Of a stretch of DNA of 47,560 nucleotides, positions 1 through 47,560 are shown in pieces; the stretch's first letter is position 1, and each line of letters opens with the position of its first letter. The position numbers were made by a program, and so were the translations under genes. A model generated the notes under the pieces. The model was given only the letters and a program-made list of their open reading frames with translations, had not been told where the DNA came from and searched no databases. Source of the stretch: Chloroflexota bacterium (GTDB lineage Bacteria > Chloroflexota > Anaerolineae > Promineifilales > Promineifilaceae); NCBI GenBank assembly GCA_020631655.1, contig JAHDGV010000004.1, forward strand, positions 1 through 47,560, given 5' to 3'.

Positions 1-361
1 AAATATTCCGGCCGATTTTTTGGCATCTAAAATCAGGATGAACACAGAACTCAGAACCGTAATAAAACTTCCCGGCCGGATCATGATTTTTAACGCACAG
101 CTCGCCTAAAACCTCACTTTCAGTTTCGGGCAAGTTTCGCCAGTCTAAATCGGTGAAGATGCCTGTTCCAAATCCCACAACCACTTCCCGCCTGCCGGCA
201 AGCAGCCCAACAATCGATCCTTCTGCAAAGATATCTGCCATTAGCTCTAAATCTTCAGGCACATACCTATCATCATCCGTCATATCAGGAAAACAGGAGT
301 TGATCAAATTGGCGACTGGCTCTGCCAAGTCGTAAGTTAAAGTGGTGTACCTGATTTCCAT
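1..361 (-). CDS. GNAT-like acetyltransferase-fold protein, paralog 3 of a tandem triplet (N-terminal ~120 codons only; the gene runs off the window start)
   Basis: My own reverse translation from the ATG at 361-359 gives MEIRYTTLTYDLAEPVANLINSCFPDMTDDDRYVPEDLELMADIFAEGSIV..VVGFGTGIFTDLDWRNLPETESE..YYGSEFCVHPDFRCQKIGR. This is colinear with the two upstream paralogs. It is absent from the ORF track because it is truncated by the window edge. Confidence 0.75.
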   Translation of the reverse strand, partial: MEIRYTTLTYDLAEPVANLINSCFPDMTDDDRYVPEDLELMADIFAEGSIVGLLAGRREVVVGFGTGIFTDLDWRNLPETESEVLGELCVKNHDPAGKFYYGSEFCVHPDFRCQKIGRNI

Positions 362-366
362 CGTCT

Positions 367-984
367 CTAGCCAGCATCTTCCGGGGTCCAAAGGATTAAT
401 GCGGCCCAATTGTCTGACCGTGGATAGGTGAAAAAATCTTTAATCGGCCGAATAATTTTAAAGCCGTTGCGCATCTGCATCGACAACGTAGGGTCAAACA
501 CCTCTCCAGCTTTCACCAAATCTAAGTAAGCATGCACGTCAGTGTTGTGTTTAAATTTTTCGTACCCGGGCAACACGGCCGCGGCCGCAAAGCCCACTTT
601 GCTATGCTTTACAACAACCGCTTTGCGCCGGTCATAAATCCCCCGGCCAATTCTTTGGCCACGGTAATCGGGATGCACACAAAAATCACTGCCATAGTAA
701 AAATCCCCCTGCGGATCATGCGCTGACTGTCCATCGATTTCGAGCAGTTCATTTTCAGTTAGGGGCAGATTATCAAAATCTAAATTCACAAAGATGCCAG
801 TTCCCATCCCCACCGGCCGATCCCCATCCAGCGCGATAATTGTCCCCTCAGGAAAAACCTCTGCCATCTCCTCTAAATCTTCTTCCCCATATTTATCGAT
901 GTCCGGCATGTCTGGAAAACAGATGTCCACTAGGTCAGCCACCGGTTTGCATAAGGCTTGATTGATTATGGTGTATGTAATCAT
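367..984 (-). CDS. GNAT-like acetyltransferase-fold protein, paralog 2
   Basis: Uses the ORF 367..1014. I chose the start at M11 (MITYTIINQALCKPVADLVDICFPDMP) by alignment with paralogs 1 and 3. That ATG (984-982) overlaps the TGA (983-981) of the upstream paralog as ATGA. The motif HPDYRGQRIGRGIYDRRK resembles GNAT motif A. The C-terminal block DPTLSMQMRNGF..RPIKDFFTYP.SDNW.ALILW is conserved. Confidence 0.75.
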   Translation of the reverse strand: MITYTIINQALCKPVADLVDICFPDMPDIDKYGEEDLEEMAEVFPEGTIIALDGDRPVGMGTGIFVNLDFDNLPLTENELLEIDGQSAHDPQGDFYYGSDFCVHPDYRGQRIGRGIYDRRKAVVVKHSKVGFAAAAVLPGYEKFKHNTDVHAYLDLVKAGEVFDPTLSMQMRNGFKIIRPIKDFFTYPRSDNWAALILWTPEDAG

Positions 985-1595
985 TCGGGTTTCCAGAGAA
1001 TCAAAGCACCCCAATTGTCTGATTTGGGGTAGGTAAAAAAGTCTTTAATCGGCCGCAACACGCTAAAGCCGTTCCGCATTTGCATAGACAGCGTGGGATC
1101 AAAAATCGTATATTCTCGAACCAATTGGATATAGGTATCGATATCCATTCGATGTTTTTCATTTTCGTAGCCGGGCAATACAGACACAGCCGCAAATCCA
1201 ACCTTCTGATGTTCTGTCACAATCTGTTTGCGCCGCTTATAAATCTGCCTGCCAATCCCCTTCATTCGGTACAGCGGATGAACACAAAACTCTGTGCCAA
1301 AGTAATATGAACCCTGCATATCATGTGCAAAGATATTGTCCGTATACAGCAGATCGTTTTCGGTAGGGGGCAAGTTGTCTAAATCCAAATCGAGAAAAAC
1401 GCCCGTACCAAATCCAACCGGCCGATCATCAACCTGTGCCACAACGCTCCCAGCCGGAAAATGATCAATCAGCTTTAACAGATCTTCCTCAAGATATTTA
1501 TCTTCGGGCGGCATGTCTGGAAAACAGGCGTCAACCAAATCCGCGACCGGCTGGCACAGCTCAGGAGATAATTTGGTATACGTGACATCTGACAT
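981..1595 (-). CDS. GNAT-like acetyltransferase-fold protein, paralog 1
   Basis: 204-aa ORF. It shares FPDMP, DRPVGFGTG, DNLP.TEN, FCVHP.YR..GIGR and DPTLSMQMRNGF..RPIKDFFTYPKSDNWGALILW with paralog 2. By eye roughly half to two-thirds of aligned positions are identical. Confidence 0.75.
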   Translation of the reverse strand: MSDVTYTKLSPELCQPVADLVDACFPDMPPEDKYLEEDLLKLIDHFPAGSVVAQVDDRPVGFGTGVFLDLDLDNLPPTENDLLYTDNIFAHDMQGSYYFGTEFCVHPLYRMKGIGRQIYKRRKQIVTEHQKVGFAAVSVLPGYENEKHRMDIDTYIQLVREYTIFDPTLSMQMRNGFSVLRPIKDFFTYPKSDNWGALILWKPE

Positions 1596-1622
1596 AAAGT
1601 TGAGCGTTTTTTGCCCAAAACA

Positions 1623-2468
1623 CTACTTGTTTTCGACTAATTTCCCATACGCATCCGGCCGACGTTGATTCAGCAACGGGAACAAATAGCGCCACTGTTC
1701 AAACAATTTTGAATCGAGTTCAGCAACCAAAACTTCTGTGGTATCGCGTCCCGCTTGGGCGATAATGTTGCCCATCGGATCACAGATAAAGCTACTGCCA
1801 TAAAACTCAACCCCTTCTTGACCGGTACGGTTGGCGGCCGCAATGTACACCCCATTAGCGATGGCTTGCCCGCGCATCACCGTTTGCCATGCTTCGGCCG
1901 TGTCTAATTCCGGGGCTTCTGGCTCAGATCCAATCGCGGTAGGGTAAAAGATAAATTCTGCACCATTTAGCGCACAAATTCGAGACATTTCAGGGAACCA
2001 TTGGTCATAGCAAGTTGGAATTGCCGTCTTTAATCCGGCCAAATCATGGATCGGATACTCGTTGTTGCCATTAAAATAGTAATCTTCGTAGTATCCAGCC
2101 CCCTGCGGAATATGAACTTTGCGGGTAAAGCCAATCAGATTGCCATCTGGGCCGCTTACAGTTGCCGTATCCCAATAATTGCCTTCGTCATCTTTTTCAT
2201 AGATGGAACCGATCAAGATAACTTTGTTTTCTTGTGCCAGCCGATTAAACACAGTCACACTTTCCCCGTCGTGCAACGATTCAGCCCGCTCAAAATTGAC
2301 ATCGTCTTTCACGCTGGCAAAGTAAGGGCACAGGGTAAATTCTTGCAGGCAGACAATCTGGGCACCTTTTTCGGCCGCGTCAGCCACCAATCCCTCAAGC
2401 TTTTTAATCATATCCGGCCGATTTCCGGCCCAATCTGTTTGGATAATTCCGATCTTTGTATTTTCCAT
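1623..2468 (-). CDS. aguB: Carbon-nitrogen hydrolase (nitrilase superfamily), resembling N-carbamoylputrescine amidase
   Basis: 281 aa. The Glu-Lys-Cys triad context is present: CLQEF, FTRKVHIP and IPTCYDQWFPE. The last closely resembles the CWDQWFPE block of N-carbamoylputrescine amidases. The actual substrate is not provable from sequence. Confidence 0.6.
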   Translation of the reverse strand: MENTKIGIIQTDWAGNRPDMIKKLEGLVADAAEKGAQIVCLQEFTLCPYFASVKDDVNFERAESLHDGESVTVFNRLAQENKVILIGSIYEKDDEGNYWDTATVSGPDGNLIGFTRKVHIPQGAGYYEDYYFNGNNEYPIHDLAGLKTAIPTCYDQWFPEMSRICALNGAEFIFYPTAIGSEPEAPELDTAEAWQTVMRGQAIANGVYIAAANRTGQEGVEFYGSSFICDPMGNIIAQAGRDTTEVLVAELDSKLFEQWRYLFPLLNQRRPDAYGKLVENK

Positions 2469-2482
2469 AAATTGCCCCGTAG

Positions 2483-2523
2483 GGGCGTAGCGCGCTACGC
2501 CCAGGGTCCAGCGCGCTGGACCC
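2483..2523. repeat. Twin perfect 20-nt GC-rich palindromes filling the junction between two genes
   Basis: GGGCGTAGCGCGCTACGCCC (2483-2502) and GGGTCCAGCGCGCTGGACCC (2504-2523) both have the form GGG-NNN-AGCGCGCT-NNN-CCC. They are bracketed by GTAGGGG (2479-2485) and CCCCTAC (2521-2527). The second palindrome abuts the stop codon of the agmatinase-like gene. Confidence 0.9.
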
Positions 2524-3444
2524 CTACATTAAATTTTTCCCCATGACCGACATCAATTCAAATGCGAGATTCGCACCCAAAATCGCGGTGATCGCTCCGT
2601 GGTCGTAATGTGGGTTAACCTCAACCAAATCAGCTCCAATCACGTTTAATCCAGCCAAGCCGCGCACCATGTGTAGCATTTGGAAGCTGGTAAAACCGCC
2701 CACTTCGGGCGTGCCAGTGCCGGGGGCATATGCCGGATCAATCGAGTCGATGTCAAGCGTGACATACACCGGCCGGTCACCTACTTTTTGGCGGATGTGA
2801 TCCACAATGGCGCTGGTCCCCATCTCAAAGCATTTTTCAATCGTCAGTACATCAGCCCCTAAATCTTCAGCCTCTTTAAGTTCACCTTCGTTTGATTGCG
2901 GACCACGAATGCCAACCTGCACATACGCACTTGTATCCACAAAGCCATCCCGTATCGCCAGATGAAACGGAGTCCCATGCTCCAGCTGTGGGATCACCTG
3001 ATAGCAGTCGGTATGTGAATCAAAGTGGACGAGGGCTACCGGCCCAAATTTTTCGGCATGAGCGCGCAAAAGCGGATAGGTAATCGAGTGATCCCCTCCC
3101 AGCGACATCACACGTACATCTTGCTTTAAAAGCTCCAAAACCCCGGCCGTGATCGCATCGGCCGACCGATCGATATTTGTAGGATCGCACTCAATATCAC
3201 CATAATCGATAAAGTTCACATCTTTGGTGGGCCAAATGCCGACATGCCGGTTATACCCCCACAGTTGCTTTGAGTTTTCGCGGATGCTACCGGGCCCATG
3301 CCGCGTGCCACTGCGCCAGCTGACCGCGCCGCTATCAAAGGGAATACCCACCACGGCCATATCTACATCGGTTAAATCACGCGTATGCTTGGCATGCATG
3401 AACGTGGAAATGCCCATGTATGCGGGGATAAATTCTTCTGTCAT
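2524..3444 (-). CDS. speB: Ureohydrolase of the arginase family (agmatinase / guanidino-acid hydrolase type)
   Basis: 306 aa with the arginase-family Mn-binding motifs HFDSHTD, GGDHSITYPLL and LDIDSIDPAYAPGTG. Agmatinase cannot be distinguished from guanidinobutyrase or guanidinopropionase by eye. Confidence 0.8.
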   Translation of the reverse strand: MTEEFIPAYMGISTFMHAKHTRDLTDVDMAVVGIPFDSGAVSWRSGTRHGPGSIRENSKQLWGYNRHVGIWPTKDVNFIDYGDIECDPTNIDRSADAITAGVLELLKQDVRVMSLGGDHSITYPLLRAHAEKFGPVALVHFDSHTDCYQVIPQLEHGTPFHLAIRDGFVDTSAYVQVGIRGPQSNEGELKEAEDLGADVLTIEKCFEMGTSAIVDHIRQKVGDRPVYVTLDIDSIDPAYAPGTGTPEVGGFTSFQMLHMVRGLAGLNVIGADLVEVNPHYDHGAITAILGANLAFELMSVMGKNLM

Positions 3445-5122: not shown

Positions 5123-5267
5123 TTGAACTCTCAGTCCATTAACTATTCAGAATTAATTGTTCTTTATTAATTATTTTCGGCCGAGCGTTAAGCCAAAATC
5201 AAATCACTCGCCAAGCCCCGCTTGAAATAATTAATAAGGAATAATCAACAAAAAATAATTAACGGGT

Positions 5268-11586: not shown

Positions 11587-11601
11587 GGCGAATCGGCCGG
11601 G

Positions 11602-11734: not shown

Positions 11735-14700
11735 TTATGGCTCGATGATCTCAATATCGTCAACCGTGTAGCGAACCGGCAGGTTGCTTTGCGAAGATGC
11801 GGTTGTGAAGAAGAAACCAAAACCACCCGGCGCTTGTAATGCTGATTCAGAATCCGTTGCGCTAAACTGCCACTCGGCCGGTTCTGGGTCAGTTACGCGC
11901 CACATCTTTACATCAAACGTTGTAGGAGATGTGTCTGTGACCCTGACCTTGATGTTGTAATCGGTATCTGGTGCAAACGAGACATTCGATATCCATTTAC
12001 GAGGAGCGACCAGGGACCATGAGCCTTCGGCAGACTTTGCCAGACCCATGTACACCGCTCCGCCACCAAATACCCGGAATGAAACTTGGTATCTTGTGGC
12101 TGAATCGATGAAGCGAGGTTCGTAAATAAACTCGTGCCACGACTGCGGGGCCGTTTCGATATTTAGCACCATCGTCATTTCAGAGTTGGTTGCACTGCTA
12201 CCGTCAATAAACGTCCGGAGCTTTTGGCCACCAAACGATAAATCAACCGTTCCTTCTGATCCATCAACGCCAAAATTCGCATTGTTGGCACCTACATATT
12301 TGTACAATCCACCCGTCTCAGCACTGCCCCACGATTCTGATTCAGTCCGTGAAAACGAATCGGCCGCGTGAACGTTGCCCTGTGCAGGAACAGTTGGAGT
12401 TGGTGATGGGGTTGGCGTTGCTTCAGGAGCCTCAAGTTCTTTCAAGACTTGCAAGTCATCGATTGTAAACAGAACCGGCGGATTTGAAGTAGCTGACGAA
12501 ATTTGGAAGCGGAATCCAACTGCACCGGGCACCTGCAAAGATGCGGCCGAATCTGTCGTTTCGGCATGCCAAACATCAGGTTGTGCCTCCCCTTCAGCCC
12601 AAACGCGGGCTTTTAAGTTGGTTGGATTGGTTGATGAGGTCTGAACCCGAATGTTTAGATAGCTATCTGGCTCAAATGAAACCCCTGGAACCGTTATGTA
12701 ATTCTCTAGTCGGGACCAAGATCCGTTGTCGTATTTTTCAAAGGCGATCTGAACCAGTCCAGTTGAATAGGTGCGCACGGCCGTTCGATACATTGTGCCT
12801 GAACGCACGCGCCGGGTAATTACTTTAACTTCTTGCCAGCTGTTTGTGTCTTTGTCAGATTTGATTTTAAAGGTCAAATCTGAGTCAAGGGCTGAAACGC
12901 TCTGCAAAATCGCCTCACGGCCGATGGCTGAGGTTAGCACGATGTCAGCCGCGCCGTCATTCACGTCAAAGTCGTTGGCTGCCGCTGATCCCCAAAGATG
13001 GGTATATTCACCACCAACTTCGGCTGATCCCCACTGGTCCGTCTCCGTTCTTGAGAAGGAGTCAAACACCCAATAATCATCTGCGTTTCCAATCGAAGGG
13101 GTAGCAGTTGGCGTTGGAGTTGGGAACGTATCACTCACCAAATCAGTAACTGTGTAATCGTCAACCGACATTTGGATTGGCACATTGGTTGTGTTGCCGC
13201 CCACTTGGAACTTGAGGCCAACCGATCCAGCCTGTTGTAGAGCTGGCTCAGAATCTGTCGTGGTCAAATTCCACGCTGATGGTTCGTTAGCCGAAGCATC
13301 CCAAATCCGCACAGCCAGTTGGGTTGGAGAACTACCTTCTGTTACGACACGGACGTTGTACTCAGTATCAGGCAAAAACGTGAAGTTCGGGATGGTGTAG
13401 TTATTCTCAAGACGTTTCCACGAATTATTGACCAATCGGTCAAAGAATAGGGTAACTGACCCGTTGCTGTTGATCCGCACCACCGAGCGATACATGGTAG
13501 TGTTATTCATGCGGCGGGTATGAATCTTGACATCCATCCAGCTTGATGGGAGTTTGTCGGCCGAGAATATGAACAGAGTATCGCTATCAAGGGCGGAGAC
13601 TTCACCAAGGTTGGCTTCGCGCCCCATGCCAGCCGCTGTTAAATTAGCCAACCCTTTTTCCCCATCAACTTCAAACGTCTGATTGGCGGAACTGCCCCAA
13701 AGATGGGTATATGCCCCACCAGTGTCTGCACTATTCCAACCAGCGGCCGAAATTCGAGAGAAATCGTCAGAAACATAAACGGTTCCACCGACTGGCGGTG
13801 TAGCTGTTGGAGCCACTGTTTGGGTTGCCGTCGCAGTTGGAACGGCCGTATTTGTCGCGGTTGCCGTTGGCGTAGCGGTCTGTGTTGGAGTTGGGGTATT
13901 TGTTGCTGTCGCTGTTGGAGTCAGCGTTTGTGTTGCCGTTACCGTTGGAGTCAGCGTTTGAGTAGCAGTTGACGTTGGAGTCAGTGTTTGTGTTGCTGTT
14001 GCTGTCGGAACGGCCGTGTTTGTTGCCGTAGCCGTTGGTGTTGGCGCAACCTCACAATCTAGGTTTGGATCATTCCCAACCACGCCACAAAAATCTCCAA
14101 CAGCTAAAGCCCAATCTGATAGATCCAAGCCGGAAAGCTGTTGATTCTGGTTCGTGAGCGTACCTAGGAGTTTCTCACCCGTGATCGTATTCAGTGCCAC
14201 ATACGGGATAGAACTATCAGACATCCAAGTGAGATCAACTGATACTGAGTCAGCATTTTCTTTGTAAAAAATGGCCAACTCATCAGTCACAGACCGCAAG
14301 CAGACCCCGTCGGTCAAGCTGTTGCACCGTTCCATGTCTGCTCGGAAACGAGGAGACATGAAATCTGAGTAAGCCTTTATTTCGGCCGCGTTGGGGTATG
14401 CCCGCGAGCCCTCATCATACGATCCACCATCTTGGAACTGCATGTTGCCCCAGATGTTTGCCACACCACCGGCCATAGCTGAATGCCACATGCCTCGGCG
14501 TGTTTCTTCGAAGGTGTAATCTTTCACTGTAAAGGCTTGATTAATGCGGAATCTATCTTCAGAAAATGCAGGTTTATTCGGCCGGAAATTGATGGCATTT
14601 ACATACCAATCGTAATCAGGATTATGCTGTTCATAAGATGCATAGGATAAGACATCGGTGTACTGCATGATTTGGTTTTTAGCGCCGCGGGCACCCAACA

Positions 14701-17700
14701 AATGGTCCCATCCAGACTTGGTTTCAAAGTAGTTGAACCAAGTCTCAATTTGTGCGGCCGTAGCCCATTCATACACATCATAACCATATCCCATGCTCCA
14801 TCCGGGCATTGGTCCAAGGCGAGCGGCCAAGTACCGCTGCATCCGTTGATCAATGGTTCCATTGAGTCCCCACTGGGTCGGATTTTGAGTGCGCATATTG
14901 TCGCCATACATCCACAAATGGACCACACCGCCATTGGCATATGTGGTTGCAATAATGTCTTCCAGAACCTCAAATGTGTCGATATCTGGATTAGCATTAG
15001 CCGCCGAGATATTTTGACAAGAGGCAGGATAGTCGCCCGATGCGCCCAGTTCAAAGAAATGACAGTAGCCGCGTACGTGGAATCCGTTGAAACCATGTTG
15101 GTCGATAAATAGCGCAATATCGCTATCGATTTGTGTTGGGTCATTGTGGAAATTGGTTAAATCCCCCAGCATCACAAACTGGGGCACAAATACCTCTCCG
15201 GTTGCTGACCGAGACCATTTTGAGCCATTTGCTTCTACAAACCCTTTCGCGGTGGAAGAATCGATTTGAATCGTTCCACTTAACCCGTCTAAATCAGAGT
15301 CGCTACTACTGGTCGAATAGCTCCACAAACCGATGAGGTCGGCCGTAAATCGTGCTTTCCACTCATCGTTGTCGTTGTAGAACATTTCGGTTTGGCGCTG
15401 GTTGCCGGTTCCAAGATGAGTGAACGTAACAACGGCTTCAAGATCAAACGGATTTCCAGACCAAGTTGGGTTGGCAAACGCTATATCCAAATGGTTCAGC
15501 AATAAGCCGGTAATATCCGGTTGCGGGGTTGCAGTAGCTGTCGCAGTTGCCGTGGCTGTTGCAGTCGCGGTTGGGATTGGCGTAGCAGTTGGCGCAATGC
15601 TCTCTTCAACAGGGACACCGTTGGCAAACGCCTCGGCCCATTGGTCAATGAGCTGAGCCTCACCAGCCGCAGAGTGGTGTGTACCATCGGCCGAGAACCA
15701 AGTTGCCCCATCTACCTCAATGTTGCGACGATAGGTTGCATACAAATCAGGGCCCGGGATTAGTTGATATGTTGCGGCGATTTGATCGATGTCGGCCAAA
15801 ATTTTTGCTTTGGCCGTAATATCACCAAATCCACCTTGTGATTCATCTGTATCAGGGATGCGGGCGATAATCGGAACATGTCCGTAGCTCAACATATCTT
15901 GAATAAGCGCATCAAGCCGCTCATCATAAAGAGAGACATTTGAGTCAGCGAACGTTAAGCCAGTGGCTCCATCATTGCTGTCGTTTGTACCAATTCCTAT
16001 GGCCCAATAACGAATATCATCTTGATTCGCATCGAATCCAAACGCATCATAAATGTCAGACACGCTGGTGCCAGCCACAAATCCGTCAGAGTTTTTACCA
16101 GACAAACCAAACGTTGAAAGAATCAAGTCGTGATCAGTTCCACGCAGTGCTTTTACGTGGCTTTCAAACCCGGTATCCCCAATCGCATCAAAGGTGCTTG
16201 CAATCAGTGAATCGCCGTAAAAGGCAACAGTATCAGGCGCTGCGCTTGCACCAGAGACCGGTTTGAACACCTGAATCTCACGCATTTTAAAGTCGTTCCC
16301 TTGGGTCGCAGATTTGCTAAACGTCCCGTCGGTTACAACCATGCGTAGCCACGAATAGCCGCCACTAGGGATCGCAAGTTTGTGCATGCGGGTAACGCGA
16401 TCATTGCCGGTTACAGTTTGAACCGTTGTCCATGTTCCGTCTGTGCCGTCTGTAGAATCGGCCGAAACTTGTATCTCATAATCGGCCGGCAAACTGTCTA
16501 AGAACGACGCATTGGCGTACCAGTTGCTCCCGACAAAGAATTTGAACCAAACTTCCCCTTCAAGATCAACGCCTAAATCTAAAGCAATACTGCTGGTTGT
16601 TCCCAAGCTACTGTCAGCCGAAAATGTTGCATCCCCCACATTGTTTATCCCCTGAAAGCCACAGGTGTAAGTGGTCAAAAAGATCTCGGGCGCCACGCTT
16701 TGATTACTAGGTTGGCCAAAGCAGAATGAGGTTTCTAAGCCGGTTAACGTGGCAGGAATTCCTCTAGAAATCAGGGCCAACTGATCAGGAACCGTTTGGA
16801 ACGCAGGGTTGATCGTGTAAACGGTAAATGGATGGTCGGCTGATCGGCCGTCGTCCGTCGTGATCGTGACAACGCCGGTCCCATCAGCCACATTCGGGAT
16901 TACAAACTCGATAAAACCATCTTCCCAAGTTGTAACAGTGGCAGGTTGCCCGAGTACCGATATCGAACCGGCCGTTTCACCAAATTGGCTACCAAACAGG
17001 CTGGCCGAATAGCCAGACACACCACTTTGATTTCCAACTTCAATAAGTGGATCAGTTGAGTTTGTGGCGGTTGCTGTCGGGGCTAAAGTGTTTGTCGCAG
17101 TTGCTGTTGGGGGAATTGTCGGTGTGTTCGTCGCAACAGGTGGCGTACTTGTGGGAACAGGTTCCCCATCTGATGTAAGTGATGTTAGGGTTAGTGCTGA
17201 GTTGTCGCGGACCAAGAAGTAACTGGCGATGTGGTCTGATGGGGCTACCCAAACTTCGTTGGTGCCACCAGGGCCGTAGGTGTTGTAAACGTAGTCAACA
17301 ATCGGAGCATACCGCGCTTCGTTGTTGCCATGGCCTCCGGTGTTGTACCAAATATGCGTATCAGCATCTGAATTAGCGGCCGCCCAGTCAAAGGCGCTCT
17401 GAACAGCTTCAAATGTGTCATAGTCTCCACGCAAATCTCGGCCGATCGGTTCATCAAAATCTAAAAGCTGTGCATTAAACTGATAGTCACCTGAAGGGAC
17501 GGCCGTTGCGCCGGGATCAGCCACAATCATGTAGAAATTCCCAGACTCGTTATATTGAACCGTTGTATTCCCAGCATCTCGCATCCCCATAACCACAGGG
17601 TGATATTCTGCAATGAAGCAAGGGGCCGCAAAGCCGATGGGGAAATAGCCGGTCCGATTTGAGTCTACAATCACCTCGTTCAGTCGGTTAAATACAGCCT

Positions 17701-18337: not shown

Positions 18338-18568
18338 TTTTGGCCCACATCACAAAGGCGAACTCCCTCACCCCACTTAAATAAGGTGAAGAAATAGTCA
18401 GTTTATTCAGCATTTAACGCATTAATCCCTTAAACAGCGTCAAAAATTTATGCCGTCTCTATTAACCCAAATTGTTTCGCAGTTAACACAGACGGCATAA
18501 ACCACTAGACATTTTTACACCCAAACCTTGCACCTAAAGTTACAGGTAGGTTAATTTTTAAAAACGTT

Positions 18569-21989: not shown

Positions 21990-22099
21990 TCCCTCGTATG
22001 GGGCAGGTTGATCTCTTCATCAAAAGAGTTTAACCACTTAAAACTAACAATCTGCGGCCGGTTTTAACACCTAGCTGCAATCGAGAACTTTTAATCACA

Positions 22100-25146: not shown

Positions 25147-25701
25147 TTGACCAAAACGATTCAACTTCCTCTCACGGCCGAAAGTGTGAAACAGCTACAA
25201 GCGGGTGATGTGGTTCTGCTCACCGGCCGGCTTCTAACCGCCCGCGATGCGGCGCACAAACGGCTCATTTCTGAACTAGAAGCGGGGCTGCAACTCCCCA
25301 TCGATTTAAAAGATGAAACGATCTTTTACGTCGGGCCAGCCCCTGCAAAAGCGGGTCGGCCGATTGGTCCGGCCGGGCCCACCACCAGCGGCCGAATGGA
25401 CCCGTTTACCCTACCACTGCTCAAGCTGGGTGTCCGCGGCCTAATCGGCAAAGGGTATCGTAGTGATCGGGTGAAACTGGCGCTGATTGAGCATCAAGCG
25501 GTCTATTTTGGAGCGGTGGGCGGTGCGGCTGCCCTGCTGGCCCGACAAATCACATCGGCCGAAGTGGTTGCGTACGCCGATCTTGGCACCGAAGCGATTC
25601 GCCGTTTGGAGGTCGAAGATTTTCCGGTTCTTGTGGTAAACGATTGTCACGGTGGGGATGCATATTCGGCCGGGCGGGAAGAATTTCAAAAGGACAGTTA
25701 A
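25147..25701 (+). CDS. Class I (Fe-S) fumarate hydratase / tartrate dehydratase, beta subunit
   Basis: 184 aa. The block LQAGDVVLLTGRLLTARDAAHKRL is typical of beta subunits. The start is TTG and I see no Shine-Dalgarno sequence. Confidence 0.8.
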   Translation: MTKTIQLPLTAESVKQLQAGDVVLLTGRLLTARDAAHKRLISELEAGLQLPIDLKDETIFYVGPAPAKAGRPIGPAGPTTSGRMDPFTLPLLKLGVRGLIGKGYRSDRVKLALIEHQAVYFGAVGGAAALLARQITSAEVVAYADLGTEAIRRLEVEDFPVLVVNDCHGGDAYSAGREEFQKDS

Positions 25702-25705
25702 GGTT

Positions 25706-28035: not shown

Positions 28036-28038
28036 TGG

Positions 28039-28064: not shown

Positions 28065-28086
28065 ATTGCAATAAACGTTTAGAAAC

Positions 28087-29217: not shown

Positions 29218-29219
29218 AT

Positions 29220-29915
29220 TTATTTCTCAAAGCGATAGCCGATCCCATACACGGTTGAGATGTGAGTCGGATTTTTAGGATCAGGCTCAATTTTTTTGCG
29301 GATATTTTTGATATGGCTGTCAAGCGTCCGCCCCATACCAGCATAGCTGTATCCCAGACCTTTCTCGATCAATTCGTCACGGGTAAATGCATAGCCAGGG
29401 CTATCCATGAGCAAGTAGAGCAGGTCAAATTCGGTGGGAGTGACATCAACCAACTCGCCTTCTACAAACAGTTGGTGAGCCCCTTTATCCAGCCGCAACC
29501 GGCCGATTTCGAGAATTTGTGACTCCGTTCCCCCTTCTTTATCGAGAGCAATGCGGCGCAGTTGAGCACGAACCCGTGCTACGAGTTCGCGAGGGTTAAA
29601 CGGCTTGGTCACATAATCATCAGCTCCTAGTTCAAGACCGATAATCTTGTCCGCATCGTCTACCCGAGCAGTCAGCATGATGATGGGAGTGGCGCGCAAA
29701 CTATCGTCTGCGCGTACAAAATTGGTGATTTGTAGCCCATCTTTATCGGGCAACATCAGATCCAGCACAACCAAATCCGGCCGTTCACTGCGGATCATCT
29801 GCTGAGCCAACAGCCCATTCCCGGCCGTCAACACCGTATACCCTTCTTGTTCTAGGTAACTGCGCACTAGCCGCACAATATTTGGATCGTCATCCACTAC
29901 CAGAATTCGGGACAT
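29220..29915 (-). CDS. OmpR/PhoB-family response regulator
   Basis: 231 aa. The receiver is ILVVDDDPNI...DLVVLDLMLPDKDG...MLTA. The C-terminal winged helix ends in VYGIGYRF. Confidence 0.9.
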   Translation of the reverse strand: MSRILVVDDDPNIVRLVRSYLEQEGYTVLTAGNGLLAQQMIRSERPDLVVLDLMLPDKDGLQITNFVRADDSLRATPIIMLTARVDDADKIIGLELGADDYVTKPFNPRELVARVRAQLRRIALDKEGGTESQILEIGRLRLDKGAHQLFVEGELVDVTPTEFDLLYLLMDSPGYAFTRDELIEKGLGYSYAGMGRTLDSHIKNIRKKIEPDPKNPTHISTVYGIGYRFEK

Positions 29916-29924
29916 AATTTACAA

Positions 29925-29945
29925 AGACGCGCCAGCGGCGCGTCT
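29925..29945. repeat. GC-rich perfect hairpin in the permease/response-regulator junction
   Basis: AGACGCGCC-AGC-GGCGCGTCT, a 9-bp stem. On the minus strand it is preceded by GTAG, echoing the GTAGGGG-type elements. Confidence 0.7.
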
Positions 29946-30006
29946 CTACTAAACCATCATCGGCCAATCAAAGGTTGGCTATGAAGCAAAGCGTCAAGCG
30001 TTAGCA

Positions 30007-31227
30007 TCACTCGTAACGTAGCGCCTCAATCGGCCGCAAGCTGGCCGCACGCCACGCTGGGAAGATGCCAAACACAATCCCGATTGTAATCGAGATACCG
30101 GTTGCTAAACCGATTGACTGTGGCGAAACAAAAGTGGGAATATCACCAAATTGTTCAGCCAAATACGAGATCAGATAGCCTAACCCAATCCCGATACCGC
30201 CGCCAACCAAAGACAACACAATCGATTCGAGCAAGAACTGAGTCAAAATATCTCGCTTGAGCGCGCCAATCGCTTTGCGAATACCGATCTCACGCGTTCG
30301 TTCAGTCACGCTAACCAACATGATGTTCATGATGCCAATACCGCCCACAACCAGCGAGATACCGGCAATAGCGCCTAGGAACACGGTGAGTAATCCCAAT
30401 ACGTTTCCAATCGTATCCAAGATCGAGGCATTTGAAAGAATTCGGAAGTCATCCTCATCGGCAAAAATAATATCGTGCCGCTCACGAAGCACTTCGGTAA
30501 GCTCTTCAGTTGCTGCGTCAATAACTTCGTCGCTTGCGGCAACGGCCGTAATTGTGTCAACCGCCTTTTCACCCCGTCGGGTCCGTTCAACACCCAACCG
30601 CTGTTGGGCCGTGGTAATCGGGATATAAACGGTCTCATCAGGGTTCGAGCCGGGTGCTTGCCCCTGCTCTTCTAAAACTCCAATCACTTCGTAGTTAATA
30701 TCCCCGATTTTGATCTCTTGCCCAACCGGAAACTCTTCACCAAAAAGTTCAGTAGCCACTTCTTGGCCGATCACGGCCACACGGGCGGCCGTATCAATAT
30801 CAGGTTGGTACAACCCATCACCGGCTAAAAATTCGGTCAGGTTATTAACGACCAAATAGTTGGCCGTTACACCCACAATGCTGGTGTTGTATTCACCGTT
30901 GCCCCACGTGACCAATTGCTGCCGATTAATGCTCGCCGCCACTTCAGAGATAGATGGTGCATTAAGCGGGTCAGCCAGCGCATCCACATCACCCAAAGTA
31001 AGAGACGGGTAGCCGCCGGAATTATCGCGATCTGTAAAAATGGTCAGCAGGTTCGAGCCGAGCGCTTCAAAGTCGGCCGTGACCGATTGCTGGACACCGT
31101 TACCAATCGAAACCAAGCCGATCACAGCCCCCACACCGATGATTACGCCCAACATCGTCAGCACAGAGCGCAACGTGTTGGCCCGCAAGCTGTCTAGCGC
31201 AGTTAAAAATGATTCTGTTAGATTCAT
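30007..31227 (-). CDS. MacB/FtsX-type ABC transporter permease
   Basis: 406 aa. It has an N-terminal TM segment, a large extracytoplasmic domain and a C-terminal FtsX-like 3-TM bundle (TERTREIGIRKAIGA). Confidence 0.85.
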   Translation of the reverse strand: MNLTESFLTALDSLRANTLRSVLTMLGVIIGVGAVIGLVSIGNGVQQSVTADFEALGSNLLTIFTDRDNSGGYPSLTLGDVDALADPLNAPSISEVAASINRQQLVTWGNGEYNTSIVGVTANYLVVNNLTEFLAGDGLYQPDIDTAARVAVIGQEVATELFGEEFPVGQEIKIGDINYEVIGVLEEQGQAPGSNPDETVYIPITTAQQRLGVERTRRGEKAVDTITAVAASDEVIDAATEELTEVLRERHDIIFADEDDFRILSNASILDTIGNVLGLLTVFLGAIAGISLVVGGIGIMNIMLVSVTERTREIGIRKAIGALKRDILTQFLLESIVLSLVGGGIGIGLGYLISYLAEQFGDIPTFVSPQSIGLATGISITIGIVFGIFPAWRAASLRPIEALRYE

Positions 31228-35451: not shown

Positions 35452-35841
35452 CTAGTAACGGTTGCCGCCACCACGGTTTCCACCGCCGTAACCGCCACGG
35501 CCACCGCCGCCGCCGCCACGACCGCCGCCGTAGCCACCGCCGCCGCCACGGCCGCCACCGTAACCACCACGGCCACCGCCGCCGCCGCCACGGTTTTCTT
35601 TTGGACGAGCTTCGTTAACGGTCAAAGAACGACCATCAACTTCTGAATCGTTTAGCGCTTCAATCGCTTTGGTTGCTTCACCGTCGTCAGACATTTCAAC
35701 AAAACCAAAACCGCGTGAGCGATTTGTCTCACGATCCATGATAATTACGGCTGAATCAACTGCTCCGTATTCTGAAAACAACTCAACAAGTTGATCCTCA
35801 TCCCATGCGTATGGTATACCGCCTACAAATAATTTTTTCAT
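35452..35841 (-). CDS. RRM-domain RNA-binding protein with a Gly/Arg-rich (RGG) tail
   Basis: 129 aa. RNP2 is LFVGGI and RNP1 is RGFGFVEM. The C-terminal ~45 aa are (GGGRGGY)n. Confidence 0.9.
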   Translation of the reverse strand: MKKLFVGGIPYAWDEDQLVELFSEYGAVDSAVIIMDRETNRSRGFGFVEMSDDGEATKAIEALNDSEVDGRSLTVNEARPKENRGGGGGGRGGYGGGRGGGGGYGGGRGGGGGGRGGYGGGNRGGGNRY

Positions 35842-35903
35842 TCTGATTAATCTCCTGATGGATGCATTCTAACTGCATCACCTATCTCTACTTACTAACT
35901 AAA

Positions 35904-36401
35904 TTAACTGTGATCAGCAGCTTCATTATGCGCATGACCATGATCAATTTCACCTGCCGTTGCCGACCGGATATTTACGATTTCAACCTTAAAGTGAAGG
36001 GTTTCACCCGCTAAAGGGTGATTGACGTCCAAAACAACTTCATCATCTGAAATTTCATGGACGAAGGCTTCCATTTCTTCCTCGTTGTCGTCTTTTAAAT
36101 GCAAAAGCATGCCGACTTCAAGTTCAAAATTTTCTGGGAACAACGAGCGATCTATCGTGTGAAATCCCTCCTCATCATATTCCCCGTAAGCTTGATTTGG
36201 TGGAATAACAGCATCAACTGAATCACCAATCTGCTTACCTTCTAGCTCTTTCTCTAAACCCGGAATTATGTTTTGATGTCCGTGTAAGTAAATGAGAGGG
36301 TCATCGGACGCAGTCCGATCAATTTCCTCGCCTCCATTTAACGACAGAACATAATTTAGGCTCACCACTTTGTCTTTGGAAATTATTTGGTTTAAATCCA
36401 T
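35904..36401 (-). CDS. slyD: FKBP-type peptidyl-prolyl isomerase, SlyD-like, with a His-rich tail
   Basis: 165 aa with LIYLHGHQNIIPGLEKELEGKQIGD and NHPLAGETLHFKVEIV. The C-terminus is IDHGHAHNEAADHS. Confidence 0.85.
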   Translation of the reverse strand: MDLNQIISKDKVVSLNYVLSLNGGEEIDRTASDDPLIYLHGHQNIIPGLEKELEGKQIGDSVDAVIPPNQAYGEYDEEGFHTIDRSLFPENFELEVGMLLHLKDDNEEEMEAFVHEISDDEVVLDVNHPLAGETLHFKVEIVNIRSATAGEIDHGHAHNEAADHS

Positions 36402-36755
36402 ATACGTGAAACGGCCTGGTTCTAAAACCGGATTCCATCCTCACACGATCTATTGTCTTGTTTTCTGGTGGAATTTGCTCTTTGCAGTGCTCTTGGGTGA
36501 GCCAGGCTGATATTGAGAAAGAAGTGTCTAAATAATTATCTTAAGGATAAGTAGTATTCGTCCAAGAAAAAATGATTAAACACTGCTGTGATCTTCATCT
36601 TCTAGCGGAGGCATTACCCATTACCTGAGTAGCATACTTTATTCAGATGCGCAGGTCAATGGGGTTCGATGATTTTGGTTGATATCAATTTGTATCTTAC
36701 GAAAGAACAATAGAGCTCACAGCAAATAGAACTAATTGGTTCTGCATTTCCTGTT

Positions 36756-38849
36756 TTAACCATCCACTTTTTGAGGACAGTCTTCCAAAGCTTGCTTTAA
36801 CTCGTCAATGCGTACAGGCTTGCTGATGTAACCATCCATCCCCGCCTCCAAATATGCTTCTTTATCTCCTACTAGCGCATTGGCCGTCATTGCTACGATC
36901 CAAGGCTGTTTATCTTTAGGCCAATCCTCTCTGATCTTTTTTGTGGCGGTCACGCCATCCATCTCTGGCATCTGAACATCCATCAAGACCAAATCATAAG
37001 TAGAATGGCGCAGCGCTTCGAGTGCTTCGATCCCGTTCCCGGCCGTGTTTGCTTTGTGGCCCAACCTCTTCAGCATATTTAACCCCACTTTTTGATTGAT
37101 CAAATTGTCATCAACCAGCAAAATTCGTAGATTCCGCTCAATATCTTGTGGCAGTTTAAACGAGAGCAAGCCCGTCTGTTTCAGAACCGGCGCGGCGTCG
37201 CTGAGATTCAACAACATAGCATTTAATTTTGAATAAAGTAGTGATGGCTTGATCGGCCGGCGAATCAGCGTCTCCCCTGTAATTTTTGTCCGGTCAGGTC
37301 GACGAAAACCGTAAGGAACAAGGCGAACAATATTTGAGATGCTTTTCTCTTGAATCAGTCTCACAGCATCAGACTCAAGCAAATCATGATCGATAATAAT
37401 TGCATCAAAATCAGCGACCGTAGACGGATCTAGAACTGGCAATGGAAAAGCCTGCACACCCCAGAAATCTAAATATTGGCAGATAATATTTTGCTCTTCG
37501 AGAAATGGATCTAAAACAGCAACTTTCAGCTCTTTTGTTGTTCCAATTCTAATCTTATGTGGCCCTGTTTTTCGATCTGCCAAAATCGTAAAGTGGAAAG
37601 TTGTTCCTTCTCCCTCGATACTTTCTACCCAAATCTCGCCACCCATCAGTTCAACCAGCTGTTTGCTAATAGCCAGCCCTAAACCGGTGCCACCATACTT
37701 GCGGGTTGTTGACGCATCAACCTGACTAAACGATTGAAACAAGCGGTTTAGCCGGTCGGCCGGAATACCGATTCCCGTATCCTGAATTGATACTTGGATA
37801 AACGAATCATCTCCCTTAGAGAGGTTTTTGGCAGAGATCTTGATGTAGCCTTCATGGGTAAATTTAACCGCATTCCCCACAATATTTACCAACACCTGTC
37901 GGATACGAGTGATATCGCCGAAAATCTTGTTTGGTACATCTGGATTAGAAATTGAAAGAAGGGCTAATCCCTTAGCCGCCGCTTTTGCACCCAGTAGATC
38001 AATCGCATCTTCCATCACGGTGCGGATTGAGTAAGGCTCATCCTCAAGCTCAAGTTGACCCGCTTCAATTTTTGAGAAATCTAGAATGTCGTTCAGGATG
38101 GTTAGGAGCGAGTCTCCGCTATTTCGGATCGTTTCGATAAAATCCTGCTGTTCTGGATCCAAAGGGGTGTCAATCATCAATCCCGCAAGGCCGATGATTG
38201 CGTTTAGAGGCGTTCGAATCTCATGACTCATGTTAGCCAAGAATTCAGATTTTGCTTGATTGGCTGCCTCGGCCGCCTCTTTGGCTTCTACCATCTCTTG
38301 TTCAGCTATTTTACGGCCGGTGATGTCTCGGATAATGGCGATATTCCGCACGTTGTCATCAATATCGCTTCGGCTAACGGTCAAATCGGCCGGAAATGGC
38401 ACCCCGCCTTGCCGAAGCCCCGTTATCTCACGCTGACCCAGCTGATACACAGCGTCGTTAGAGTTGGCTTCAAACAAGTCTGCAAAAGACATTCCTAACG
38501 CTTTGGATGCTTCAATTTTAAAAATTTCTTCGGCCGCAGAATTATAGGATTGGATGACGCCATCTTTACCAAACATCACAATGCCATCCAGAACATTGTT
38601 CAAAATCGATTCGAGCTTAGCATTTACAGCCGCAATTTGTTGCTGGGTTTTGTTCTGCAGGTCCTCGTACAGCTTGGTCATCTCATCTGAAGAGACAGCC
38701 AACGAGCGTTCGGTTAAATACCGATCTTGGTCCGTCTGCTCATACGCACGGCCGACACTCTCTAAGAGCCGTTTCCATTGAGCCTCGTTGGGAAGCTCCC
38801 CTTCTTTTAGACGTATTCGTTTGAGCTGGCGTGCGAGAAGTTTGTGCAT
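36756..38849 (-). CDS. Hybrid sensor histidine kinase (PAS, HisKA, HATPase_c, degenerate receiver-like region, C-terminal receiver)
   Basis: 697 aa. The PAS domain is around [24 protein letters not shown]. The H-box is [15 protein letters not shown] and the ATPase block is [19 protein letters not shown]. The C-terminal REC is [11 protein letters not shown]...[14 protein letters not shown]. The middle segment VAVLDPF...AIIIDHDL looks like a receiver lacking the acidic pocket. Confidence 0.85.
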
Positions 38850-44952: not shown

Positions 44953-45040
44953 CACTTCACTAACAAAGACCAGTCAGGTTTTTAGTAACTATTGCTCTAA
45001 GCACCAGAGATAAACAGAAACCTGACTGGTCTCTTAACGA

Positions 45041-45772
45041 TTAACCAATCAGCCATTGGAACAGCAACATTCCGGCCGTTGATATAACCAACATCGTCAC
45101 AACGGTTGACATCGGTACTTCTTCACGGGCCTCTGGCAACATTTCTGAAAAGACCATCCAGATCATCGCCCCGGCGGCAAGCCCTAGCCCTACGGCTAAA
45201 AACGGCCGAAACGCCAGCACAAACAAAAAGGCAGGCACCGCCATGATCGGTTGTGGCAGACTAGAGAAAATGCTCCATCCGGCCGCACGCCACACGGTTG
45301 AACCACGTGGGATCAAGACAAGTGCAATCGCCAAACCTTCTGGGATATTGTGGATCGCAATCGCGGCTGAGATCAATGTTCCGAAATCTTGCCCGTCTCC
45401 AAATGAAACTCCCACGCCGATCCCTTCAGCAAATGAATGAACCGTCATAATGCCGATCACAAGGAGCATCTTCATCGCATCAGCGTTCCCCTCAAGCTCC
45501 CCAATATCCGGTTCATGCTCTTCCAAAAAGTAACCAGCCACAATAATGAGCACAACACCCAACAGCATGCCGACCACCAGCCGGATAGGGTTAATCTGCC
45601 ACCCTTCATAAACTAGACCTAAGCTGGCACCCAGCATAAGCCCGGCCGCAGCTGCATTTGCCGCTCCCAAAAAGGTACCGCTAATATTTTTGACAAAAAA
45701 GAACGGAAGTGCACCTAATCCAGTAAAAATTGCTGTAATTAACGCCGCACCAAAAACGTACCAAACATCCAT
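45041..45772 (-). CDS. zupT: ZIP-family divalent metal (zinc) transporter, ZupT-like
   Basis: 243 aa, multi-TM. Contains HSFAEGIGVG and AIHNIPEGLAIALV, the ZIP signature helices. Confidence 0.8.
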   Translation of the reverse strand: MDVWYVFGAALITAIFTGLGALPFFFVKNISGTFLGAANAAAAGLMLGASLGLVYEGWQINPIRLVVGMLLGVVLIIVAGYFLEEHEPDIGELEGNADAMKMLLVIGIMTVHSFAEGIGVGVSFGDGQDFGTLISAAIAIHNIPEGLAIALVLIPRGSTVWRAAGWSIFSSLPQPIMAVPAFLFVLAFRPFLAVGLGLAAGAMIWMVFSEMLPEAREEVPMSTVVTMLVISTAGMLLFQWLIG

Positions 45773-45797
45773 AAAACTAACCTCTGTTACAAACAGG

Positions 45798-45818
45798 TTT
45801 AACCATGGTTAAATTATA
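45798..45818. promoter_or_regulatory. TTTAACCATGGTTAAATTATA box: a 16-bp perfect palindrome abutting a minus-strand TATAAT
   Basis: TTTAACCATGGTTAAA (45798-45813) is a perfect palindrome. The minus-strand TATAAT is at 45818-45813, 41 nt upstream of the ZIP ATG (45772). Confidence 0.5.
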
Positions 45819-45904
45819 TTTTAAACTCTCAACATTTGCACCTTTCTTAGACAATATTGACCATTTATCCTTGCAACTTAATGGCTTCCTGCTACCCTCC
45901 CCAA

Positions 45905-47317
45905 ATGACCCAATTACACTATACATCAGCCATAGAGCTAGCCCGGATGATCCGGGACAAAGAAGTCAGTGTTGTTGATGTGATGAAGGCCCATCTTGCC
46001 CGCATTGCAGAAACCAATCCACAAGTAAACGCCATATGCACGCTTCTGCCAGAAGATGATTTATTGGCCCAAGCGGCCGAAAAAGATGCCCAGCTAGCGG
46101 CCGGTCACACTCCCGGCCCCCTGTTTGGCTTACCCATCGCAGTAAAAGATTTGGCCTTGACCAAAGGGATTCGCACGACCATGGGATCCTTAATCTACAA
46201 AGATTTTGTGCCTGATGTAGACGAGCTTTTTGTAGCACGGATGAAATCGGCCGGAGCGATTATCATCGGCAAAACCAACACCCCGGAATTTGGGGCAGGC
46301 TCAAACTCGTTTAACAAAGTTTTTGGCATGACCCGTAATCCATATGACCTGAGCAAAGTAGCGGGTGGGAGCACCGGCGGCGGCGCGGCCGCACTGGCGG
46401 CCGGTATGGTTCCATTGGCAGATGGGTCTGATCTGGGGGGATCGGTGCGGAACCCGCCTGGGTTTAACAATGTGTTTGGTCTGCGCCCAAGCCCCGGTCG
46501 GATTCCTCGCGTCCCCAACATGCAACCGTGGGGATCGATGCCGGTATTGGGGCCGATGGGGCGCTCGGTTGAAGATGCGGGGCTGTTGCTTTCGGTAATG
46601 GCCGGTTACGACGGCCGTGATCCGCTCGCCTTGCAGGGTGATCCAACCATTTATGCACAATCACTGGAAGCCGACATGCGGGGCAAAAAGATCGCCTGGA
46701 CGCCTGACTTAGGTCGTCTACCCGTTGACCCTGAAGTCGTTCTTGTCCTCGAAAAAAATCTAGCCATCCTTGAAGAGATGGGCTGTATTGTGGAGCGGGC
46801 ACATCCAAAACTTGAAGGGGGAGAAGAGGTGTTCCAAACGATGCGTGCGGCCGGATTTGCGGCCGGACTTCTGGAAGATCTGAAAAAGCACGCCGACAAA
46901 ATGAAGAAAACGGTGATTTGGAATATCGAAAAAGGGATTCCGATGACGGGGATTGAAATCGCGGCCGCGCAGAAAAAACGTGGGGAGCATTTTCAAGAGA
47001 TGGTGGCGTTCATGAACGAGTATGACTATCTGTTACTCCCCACTGCGCAGGTTCCTCCCTTCTCTGTTGATGTTGAATATCCTACGGAGATCAACGGTGT
47101 ACCGATGGAAACCTACATCGACTGGATGATGATTGTGAGCCTGATCACCAACACAGAACATCCGGCCGCTTCTGTACCAGGCGGATTTACAGCTGATGGT
47201 CTGCCGGTTGGCTTACAAATTGTCGGTAAATATCGGGACGAGCTAAGCGTTTTGCAATTTGCCCATGCGTTTGAGCAGGCTACCAAATTTGGGGAAACAC
47301 GGCCGGAGATTCAGTAA
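45905..47317 (+). CDS. Amidase-signature family amidase
   Basis: The signature is GGSTGGGAAALAAGMVPLADGSDLGGSVRNPPGFNNVFGLRPSPGRIP, with the catalytic Lys context IAVKDL. The start is moved to the ATG at 45905 (MTQLHYTSAIELARMI). The ATG at 45881 is an alternative. Confidence 0.85.
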   Translation: MTQLHYTSAIELARMIRDKEVSVVDVMKAHLARIAETNPQVNAICTLLPEDDLLAQAAEKDAQLAAGHTPGPLFGLPIAVKDLALTKGIRTTMGSLIYKDFVPDVDELFVARMKSAGAIIIGKTNTPEFGAGSNSFNKVFGMTRNPYDLSKVAGGSTGGGAAALAAGMVPLADGSDLGGSVRNPPGFNNVFGLRPSPGRIPRVPNMQPWGSMPVLGPMGRSVEDAGLLLSVMAGYDGRDPLALQGDPTIYAQSLEADMRGKKIAWTPDLGRLPVDPEVVLVLEKNLAILEEMGCIVERAHPKLEGGEEVFQTMRAAGFAAGLLEDLKKHADKMKKTVIWNIEKGIPMTGIEIAAAQKKRGEHFQEMVAFMNEYDYLLLPTAQVPPFSVDVEYPTEINGVPMETYIDWMMIVSLITNTEHPAASVPGGFTADGLPVGLQIVGKYRDELSVLQFAHAFEQATKFGETRPEIQ

Positions 47318-47325
47318 CAAGTTTT

Positions 47326-47365
47326 AAGTATGAAGTGGGTTGATTACGCATCCCACTTCATACTT
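47326..47365 (+). terminator. Perfect 14-bp hairpin downstream of the amidase gene (terminator-like, weak T tail)
   Basis: AAGTATGAAGTGGG (47326-47339) pairs with CCCACTTCATACTT (47352-47365) across a 12-nt loop. It starts 9 nt after the stop codon. Confidence 0.5.
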
Positions 47366-47447
47366 TCTACCAAAACTTTCGCTTGCAGGGAGCACTGAGC
47401 TTGTCGAAGTGCGCTCTCGCATTTTCGAAAGTCCTAACACCTTCAAA

Positions 47448-47560
47448 CTATTCAACTAAAACGGCCGGTTCACTCGGCTCCTCTGGCTTGCGCCAAATGT
47501 TGCGTGCAAAGTAGCTGATCCCCAATAACACCCCACCAAATCCGCTAAACAGAATCACAC
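47448..47560 (-). CDS. C-terminal fragment of a membrane protein (gene enters from beyond the window end)
   Basis: My reverse translation gives ..VILFSGFGGVLLGISYFARNIWRKPEEPSEPAVLVE followed by TAG at 47450-47448. It is too short to assign a family. Confidence 0.35.
   Translation of the reverse strand, partial: VILFSGFGGVLLGISYFARNIWRKPEEPSEPAVLVE

Follow-up and report, generated by a model that had tools for sequence, protein, structure and literature searches.

Why should a single six-base palindrome be written into a bacterial chromosome once every 250 bp? The question is raised by a stretch of 47,560 bp from a Chloroflexota genome of the family Promineifilaceae (assembly GCA_020631655.1, contig JAHDGV010000004.1, positions 1..47560; the whole of this stretch is called the window hereafter). 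At a GC content of 49.4%, the window contains 191 dispersed copies of the word CGGCCG, i.e. 4.0 per kb, spread over both strands and present in 37 of 38 open reading frames (ORFs). A first-pass annotation made by eye had counted 16 copies in 1-3,200 and 16 in 45,001-47,560, and both counts proved exact; the expectation it had set against them, 0.25-0.4 per kb, was close to the 0.22-0.30 per kb computed here from composition and dinucleotides. Its proposal that CGGCCG is an iterated palindrome resembling the highly iterated palindrome (HIP) HIP1 of cyanobacteria, and that a generative or selective process at the DNA level is needed to account for it, is supported by null models, by the spread of the word over frames and strands, and by the conservation of individual sites.

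When all 6-mers and the 64 hexamer palindromes of the window were counted, CGGCCG was the top hexamer of any kind, and the next six most frequent hexamers all overlap it. The runner-up among palindromes, ATCGAT, was found in 37 copies, and CGATCG in 12 copies only. The other palindromes composed entirely of G and C are at or below expectation (GCCGGC 11, CCGCGG 7, CGCGCG 7, GCGCGC 7, GGGCCC 5, GGCGCC 4), which refutes a simple compositional effect. Base composition (order 0) predicts 10.7 copies of CGGCCG (observed/expected ratio, O/E, 17.9), and dinucleotides (first order) predict 14.1 (O/E 13.5); second-order and third-order models predict 29.0 (O/E 6.6) and 59.2 (O/E 3.2), respectively. A fourth-order Markov model yields an O/E of only 1.2, but this maximum-order null is uninformative because its pentamers largely derive from CGGCCG itself: 191 of the 356 GGCC tetramers sit within the word, and 79% of CGGCC pentamers continue with G. 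Synonymous codons were therefore also shuffled within each of 38 genes defined from the ORF list (91.6% of the window), keeping the proteins and per-gene codon usage. This null is conservative, since per-gene usage already contains the motif's own codons; it nevertheless gave 29.1 +/- 5.0 copies in 300 runs (maximum 44), against 186 in coding DNA (O/E 6.4, z=31). Hyper-abundance thus holds against both the codon-preserving and the dinucleotide nulls, and neither ratio comes down to the 1-2 at which the claim would have lost its force. Bases flanking the word are near background, and the conserved unit is exactly six bases long.

The enrichment is similar across the three reading frames and on both strands. 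Relative to the synonymous shuffle, 123 of the 186 coding copies fall in the frame nCG-GCC-Gnn against 17.4 expected (O/E 7.1), 35 in the frame CGG-CCG, read as Arg-Pro, against 5.7 (O/E 6.2), and 28 in the frame nnC-GGC-CGn against 6.3 (O/E 4.5). The earlier statement that the motif occurs in all frames and on both strands is thus correct but incomplete, as it passes over the 123 copies in a single frame, which together with the Arg-Pro copies supply 123 of the window's 464 GCC codons and 35 of its 191 CGG codons. That the motif also lies between genes was likewise borne out: internal intergenic DNA (3,398 bp, GC 40.6%) contains 3 copies against 0.23 expected, each of them an isolated hexamer in AT-rich sequence. 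Density is 4.3 per kb in coding and 1.5 per kb in intergenic DNA by the ORF-based division, and about 0.9 per kb in true internal spacers. Since enrichment is found in all frames, on both strands and in intergenic DNA, its cause acts on DNA, not on translation.

How far this has gone is best seen where the protein leaves a choice. Arg-Pro dipeptides are spelled CGGCCG, one codon pair of 24 possible, in 35 of 42 cases (83%), and the motif is used in 123 of 196 (S/T/P/A)-Ala-(V/A/D/E/G) tripeptides and in 28 of 51 x-Gly-Arg contexts. A completion test, on about 43,600 codons pooled from the window's clade, took every third codon position at which the other five bases already agree with the word and recorded the base used there. 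It is the motif base in 976 of 1,116 instances (87.5%), with values of 83-96% for the individual positions of the hexamer, so that the force acts on the complete hexamer. The completion fraction falls to 0.74 in a second enriched cluster and to 0.28 in non-enriched relatives, and the control words GCCGGC, CCGCGG, GGCGCC and CGCGCG reach 0.15-0.20 in genomes of the clade itself. The log odds ratio of completion between clade and relatives is about 2.9, and a mutation-selection-drift argument points to a scaled selection or conversion coefficient of about 3 per site. At synonymous motif positions all three alternative bases are depleted. Of the variants that survive, transitions (T for C, A for G) are the most frequent single class (for example T 27, G 17 and A 13 at position 5; A 19, C 10 and T 7 at position 2), CGGCTG being the commonest unrealised variant. 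Among words one step away from the motif, transitions at positions 1/6 and 2/5 are above expectation (O/E 1.3-1.55), and changes at the central positions are rarest (O/E 0.4-0.9). Motif-compatible tripeptides are found at 1.34-1.57 times their amino-acid expectation in the clade versus 0.74-1.08 times in non-enriched relatives, and the force therefore also nudges protein sequence. Finally, copies are spaced more evenly than the same number drawn at random from the synonymous opportunities after removal of mutually exclusive overlaps (coefficient of variation 0.88 versus 1.02 +/- 0.06, P=0.003).

The trait is not confined to this one genome. The amidohydrolase encoded in the window retrieved two Chloroflexota metagenome-assembled genomes, L001 (79% amino-acid identity, 4.1 copies per kb) and L002 (70%, 3.2 per kb), and further relatives were collected with the class I fumarase alpha subunit as marker, a fumarase alignment being used for the metagenome scan. 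O/E values of 15-27 were obtained for L001, L002 and L003 (the latter two both from GCA_020629055.1), L004 (GCA_045105475.1, labelled 'Anaerolineae bacterium'), L037, L177 (GCA_047613795.1, labelled 'Candidatus Promineifilaceae bacterium') and L178 (a Logan assembly); in the NCBI taxonomy, Promineifilaceae belongs to Chloroflexota, Ardenticatenia, Promineifilales. The metagenome scan brought out a second group (L010, L009, L015, L021, L040, L044, L046, L013 and L041), which displays O/E values of 3-11 with the same frame and saturation pattern. In a neighbour-joining tree of a single gene, the two enriched groups are separated by the non-enriched L005 (O/E 1.5), L006 (ERZ25067879, a 6.1-Mb contig), L007 (GCA_039029935.1) and L008. 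The trait is thus common to a Promineifilaceae-like clade and a second related cluster, and absent or depleted in the relatives between them. A single-gene tree is a weak guide to history, and the trait may either be old with subsequent losses or have been gained more than once. L006, L007 and L008 together contain 1 copy of CGGCCG in 43 kb versus 7.4-8.5 expected (P about 0.002-0.005, post hoc), so that this lineage may avoid the word, as expected if a restriction system of EagI type is or was present there. Because enrichment recurs in independent NCBI, Logan and JGI assemblies, an assembly artefact is ruled out. The first-pass annotation had spoken of a genome-wide process; a genome-wide trait is inferred from the 47.6 kb of the host genome together with about 110 kb of sequence from the closest clade and about 40 kb from the second cluster.

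Individual sites persist as well. When positions 15,796-30,216 of the window were aligned to L001 (81% nucleotide identity), 45 of 64 window sites (70%) were found at the corresponding position, whereas arbitrary hexamers of like frame reached 30%. Four-fold degenerate sites, compared only where the first two codon bases agree, were identical to the ortholog in 85% of cases inside motifs versus 48% in the background for L001, 81% versus 37% for L003, 75% versus 30% for L004, and 55% versus 35% for L002. Site conservation in related genomes, which the first-pass annotation had named as a consequence worth checking, is therefore evident in L001, L003 and L004 (75-85% against 30-48%), and CGGCCG is retained, or made anew again and again, amid neutral sites that have been nearly randomised. 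Turnover continues nonetheless. Polarised by the outgroups L003 and L004, the differences that separate the window from L001 resolve into about 11-12 gains and about 6 losses of CGGCCG since their split, and 7-8 gains fall on their common branch. Several gains took more than one substitution or an amino-acid change; new copies still arise.

CGGCCG shows every testable feature of a HIP and is HIP-like without being HIP1, from which it differs in word and host. It is far more frequent than composition or low-order Markov models allow and unique in this among the 64 hexamer palindromes; it is dispersed in coding and non-coding DNA and not contained in a longer repeat or mobile element; and it is shared by L001-L004, L037, L177 and L178, with sites conserved above background. 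HIP1 (GCGATCGC) is likewise a short, hyper-abundant palindrome dispersed in coding and non-coding DNA outside longer repeats (PMC4390886, PMC5861425), is also shared within a lineage with sites conserved beyond background and a distribution more even than random, and likewise deviates least at its central positions (PMC4390886). Unlike CGGCCG, it is 8 bp long, has a GATC core and is found in cyanobacteria. At about 4,000 per Mb, CGGCCG is denser than HIP1 (300-2,700 per Mb; PMC4390886), and its O/E of 18 is lower than the 55-228 of HIP1 because a hexamer is expected more often. HIP1 is associated with the orphan methyltransferases DmtA and DmtC, of which no counterpart was found in the window or the enriched loci. 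Closer in form are the alternative HIPs of single cyanobacterial genomes, GGCGCC in Calothrix PCC 7103, RCCGGY in Oscillatoria PCC 10802 and GCSGC in Cyanothece PCC 7822 (Elhai 2015, PMC4390886). These are GC-rich palindromes of 5-6 bp with 500-2,500 or more copies per Mb, each matching the specificity of a resident methyltransferase, and like CGGCCG, which has it at its centre, they contain a GC dinucleotide able to carry G-m5C. They are sporadic, however, whereas CGGCCG persists across a clade with saturated synonymous divergence and recurs in a second cluster.

Other systems are more remote. The uptake signal sequences (USS) of Pasteurellaceae and the DNA uptake sequences (DUS) of Neisseriaceae share with CGGCCG a lineage-specific word, a preference for permissive coding positions, a protein footprint, even spacing and a plausible neutral drive. 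Their core is asymmetric, 9-12 bp long, present about once per kb and frequent in terminators, where it often forms inverted pairs, in contrast to a 6-bp palindrome found 4 times per kb and mostly in coding DNA. The Dcm/Vsr site CCWGG in E. coli and CCGG in Helicobacter are, like CGGCCG, methyltransferase or restriction-modification targets that are over-represented and not avoided. These effects are below 2-fold as against 13-18-fold for CGGCCG, whose variant spectrum misfits T:G repair and lacks the specific depletion of T:G-derived variants that marks Vsr. Over-representation of restriction-modification sites was rare and modest among the thousands of genomes covered by one survey (Kr about 1.4-1.5; PMC4687349).

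Taken as a whole, these observations are best explained by a HIP-type word under a lineage-specific directional force at the DNA level that is probably coupled to methylation, an explanation in which we place about as much belief as doubt. Such a force would write a six-base recognition word into the chromosome wherever the proteins tolerate it, and would then hold the copies. CGGCCG would be recognised by a cytosine DNA methyltransferase with a specificity like that of EagI but without effective cognate restriction, and complete methylated sites would be favoured over every one-off variant. We infer the link to methylation purely from the nature of the word, which is that of a classic type II target. 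Two routes would fit the preference for the whole site. Methylation could guide the choice of strand in mismatch or heteroduplex repair, as in the G-m5C model of Elhai (PMC4390886), methylation of the inner C of CGGCCG being what would create G-m5C. Alternatively, methylated sites could be favoured when DNA is taken up or recombined, as in the case of HIP1, which when methylated is reported to raise transformation efficiency up to 100-fold in Synechococcus PCC 7002 (bioRxiv 10.1101/2024.09.10.611283); a 2026 preprint also argues from phylogenetic correlation that HIP1 is an uptake sequence. By Elhai's own argument (PMC4390886), clade-wide persistence of CGGCCG points to function. Our best guess is whole-site selection or conversion, probably coupled to methylation.

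Several points weigh against this explanation. The density of 4 per kb exceeds the saturation of about 1 per kb predicted by Elhai's repair ratchet. Conservation of sites is inseparable from their repeated re-creation at the same permissive positions, the results on spacing and protein footprint rest on modest samples, and the 47.6 kb seen of the host genome limit any genome-wide claim. Nor was a responsible enzyme found: neither the window nor the roughly 150 kb of enriched loci yielded a gene for a methyltransferase, restriction enzyme, Vsr or MutH-like protein. When all 38 ORFs of the window were scanned against Pfam, no DNA methyltransferase, restriction enzyme, Vsr nuclease or transposase was detected, in agreement with the earlier remark that no candidate is encoded here, and NCBIfam scans of the unknown window ORFs gave no match. 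A search of all enriched loci with patterns for m5C and N4/N6 methyltransferase motifs returned one match, an HpcH/HpaI aldolase, and hence none. The genes of the window are ordinary metabolic, transport and two-component genes together with one tRNA-Arg. CGGCCG is compositionally common in high-GC viruses, and a scan of viral contigs for three motifs within 80 bp retrieved only such viruses, with no phage of the clade and no methyltransferase.

Among alternatives to a methylation-coupled force, an uptake or recombination signal of the USS/DUS kind, maintained by molecular drive with or without methylation because word-bearing fragments are preferentially taken up or recombined, is conceivable but in our view unlikely. 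It would account for the preference for the whole site over all one-off variants, for the way permissive coding positions are filled, for the footprint on proteins, for the more-even-than-random spacing and for the lineage-specific word, and both the transformation result with methylated HIP1 and the preprint on HIP1 as an uptake sequence lend it weight. Yet known uptake sequences are non-palindromic, 9-12 bp long, present about once per kb and often paired in terminators, whereas CGGCCG is a 6-bp palindrome at 4 per kb that lacks an extended flank and, per kb, is less frequent between genes than in coding DNA; neither competence genes nor a sequence-specific receptor are encoded in the window. 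Palindromy, even spacing and conserved sites would also suit the binding site of a dimeric protein that organises the chromosome, or of another DNA-binding protein, with selection acting on density and spacing independently of methylation, and a role in nucleoid structure was proposed for HIP1 by Xu et al. (2018). We regard this as quite improbable: structural sites that are redundant would hardly warrant a coefficient near 3 every ~250 bp, there is no known candidate protein, and palindromes of six bases are classically what type II methyltransferases and restriction enzymes recognise.

The spectrum of variants bears most directly on a drive by very-short-patch (VSP) repair, in which an m5C methyltransferase and a Vsr-type nuclease would convert T:G mismatches in one-off words to C:G. 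CGGCCG is a typical m5C methyltransferase target, and one-off words at the central positions are indeed somewhat under-represented (O/E 0.4-0.9). Correction of T:G mismatches would, however, remove transition variants and leave transversions in balance with the motif. What is seen is that all three alternative bases are depleted and not only T or A, that T/A transitions are the commonest survivors, that CGGCTG is the commonest unrealised variant, and that outer transition one-offs reach O/E 1.3-1.55; this mechanism is accordingly given very little credence. Known VSP effects are moreover below 2-fold, as against 18-fold here. That the enrichment merely reflects composition or codon usage, a longer repeat, a mobile element or the assembly can practically be dismissed. 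The O/E of 1.2 under the fourth-order model could be cited for it, but that null absorbs the word itself, and the synonymous shuffle leaves an O/E of 6.4 (z=31); control palindromes complete only to 0.15-0.20, flanks are unconserved, and independent assemblies of several origins have the copies in frame within conserved genes. Repeats of the repetitive extragenic palindrome (REP) or miniature inverted-repeat transposable element (MITE) type, with a unit of at least 20 bp and a mainly intergenic location, were rejected, as only six bases are conserved and 186 of 191 copies are in ORFs.

CGGCCG apparently constitutes a second, independent case of the HIP1 type, with a new word in a new phylum. 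The literature yielded no report of CGGCCG hyper-abundance or of HIP-like words in Chloroflexi/Chloroflexota, Anaerolineae or Promineifilaceae, within an incomplete coverage that makes a prior description possible. What HIP1 does and how it arose has been an open question since the 1990s, with progress limited because there was essentially one lineage to study. It is tempting to propose, although we do so tentatively and with slightly more doubt than conviction, that HIPs are not peculiar to cyanobacteria, and that Promineifilaceae-like Chloroflexota independently evolved the same kind of system, denser than any HIP1, filling about 87% of synonymous opportunities, extending over a deep clade, and accompanied by a neighbour lineage that appears to avoid the word. 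A second case makes the question a comparative one, namely which methyltransferase, repair or competence genes co-vary with the trait in the two phyla alike, and offers enriched and non-enriched sister lineages and a measurable strength (a coefficient of ~3, 87% saturation). If the mechanism is shared, for example G-m5C-guided repair or methylation-dependent recognition of self DNA in uptake or recombination, a common gene set could be found by comparing enriched with non-enriched genomes in two phyla. In practical terms, the drive distorts codon usage and shifts peptide composition, and the abundance of CGGCCG is a compositional marker for binning this lineage. Enzymes of EagI type would be predicted either to shred this DNA or to be completely blocked by methylation.

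Some copies deserve individual mention. The back-to-back doublet CGGCCGCGGCCG reported earlier at 576-587 is real, being an exact sequence match. The densest gene, encoding the fumarase beta subunit, has 12.6 copies per kb, with three copies within 38 bp (25357..25394). The three internal intergenic copies stand alone at 5178..5183, in AT-rich DNA, at 11594..11599 and at 22055..22060, the last being kept in place in L001; a further lone copy, separate from these, is located at 47462..47467, in an unassigned stretch downstream of the amidase gene at the end of the window. Near the copy conserved at 22055, the window reads TAGCTG (22079-22084 region) at a place where L001 contains another CGGCCG, and the three differences between the two words are all transitions at CpG cytosines of the motif. 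The longest motif-free stretch, 35555..37039 (1,491 bp between copy starts), comprises an FKBP gene and a 354-bp spacer. This gene for an FKBP-type isomerase (35904-36755, GC 41.6%) is the sole ORF without CGGCCG; it could be a recent acquisition or be subject to different constraints.

Enrichments of other palindromes were noted elsewhere. In the viral contig L076 (IMGVR_UViG_3300036770_004863, 13.85 kb, GC 56%), GAGCTC is present 44 times where dinucleotides predict 3.9, and it reaches a synonymous completion fraction of 0.69, which makes it another HIP-like palindrome, in a virus; the contig also has 33 copies of CGGCCG, and none of the three ORFs checked encodes a methyltransferase. In more distant relatives, TGGCCA is found 26 times versus 7.3 expected in L020, and AGGCCT 34 times versus 17.5 expected in L019 plus L033, with completion fractions of about 0.43-0.45, far below the CGGCCG effect. 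Apparent enrichments in distant relatives, such as those of CGATCG in high-GC contigs and of AGGCCT, were set aside, as dinucleotides largely explain them (O/E 1.0-1.9).

With regard to neighbouring genes, an ORF of 2,200 aa on the minus strand (11735-18337) includes 22 motif copies, and Pfam recognises in it a single domain, DUF5060, at residues 950-1011. The most conserved ORFs of the locus are two neighbours of 525 aa and 147 aa (20412-22543) without Pfam or NCBIfam match (96% and 98% amino-acid identity to L001, 80-93% to L003 and L004). In every clade locus this pair keeps its syntenic place upstream of the fumarase genes; tRNA-Arg(TCT) follows it at 22576-22651. An inverted repeat at 26869-26937, suggested by a reverse BLAST match, was not confirmed. 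Within 24258-26845, a homologue of bacterial indoleamine 2,3-dioxygenase (PF01231, E=5e-89) is encoded directly downstream of the class I fumarase alpha and beta subunits, an arrangement kept across the clade (L003, L004, L177).

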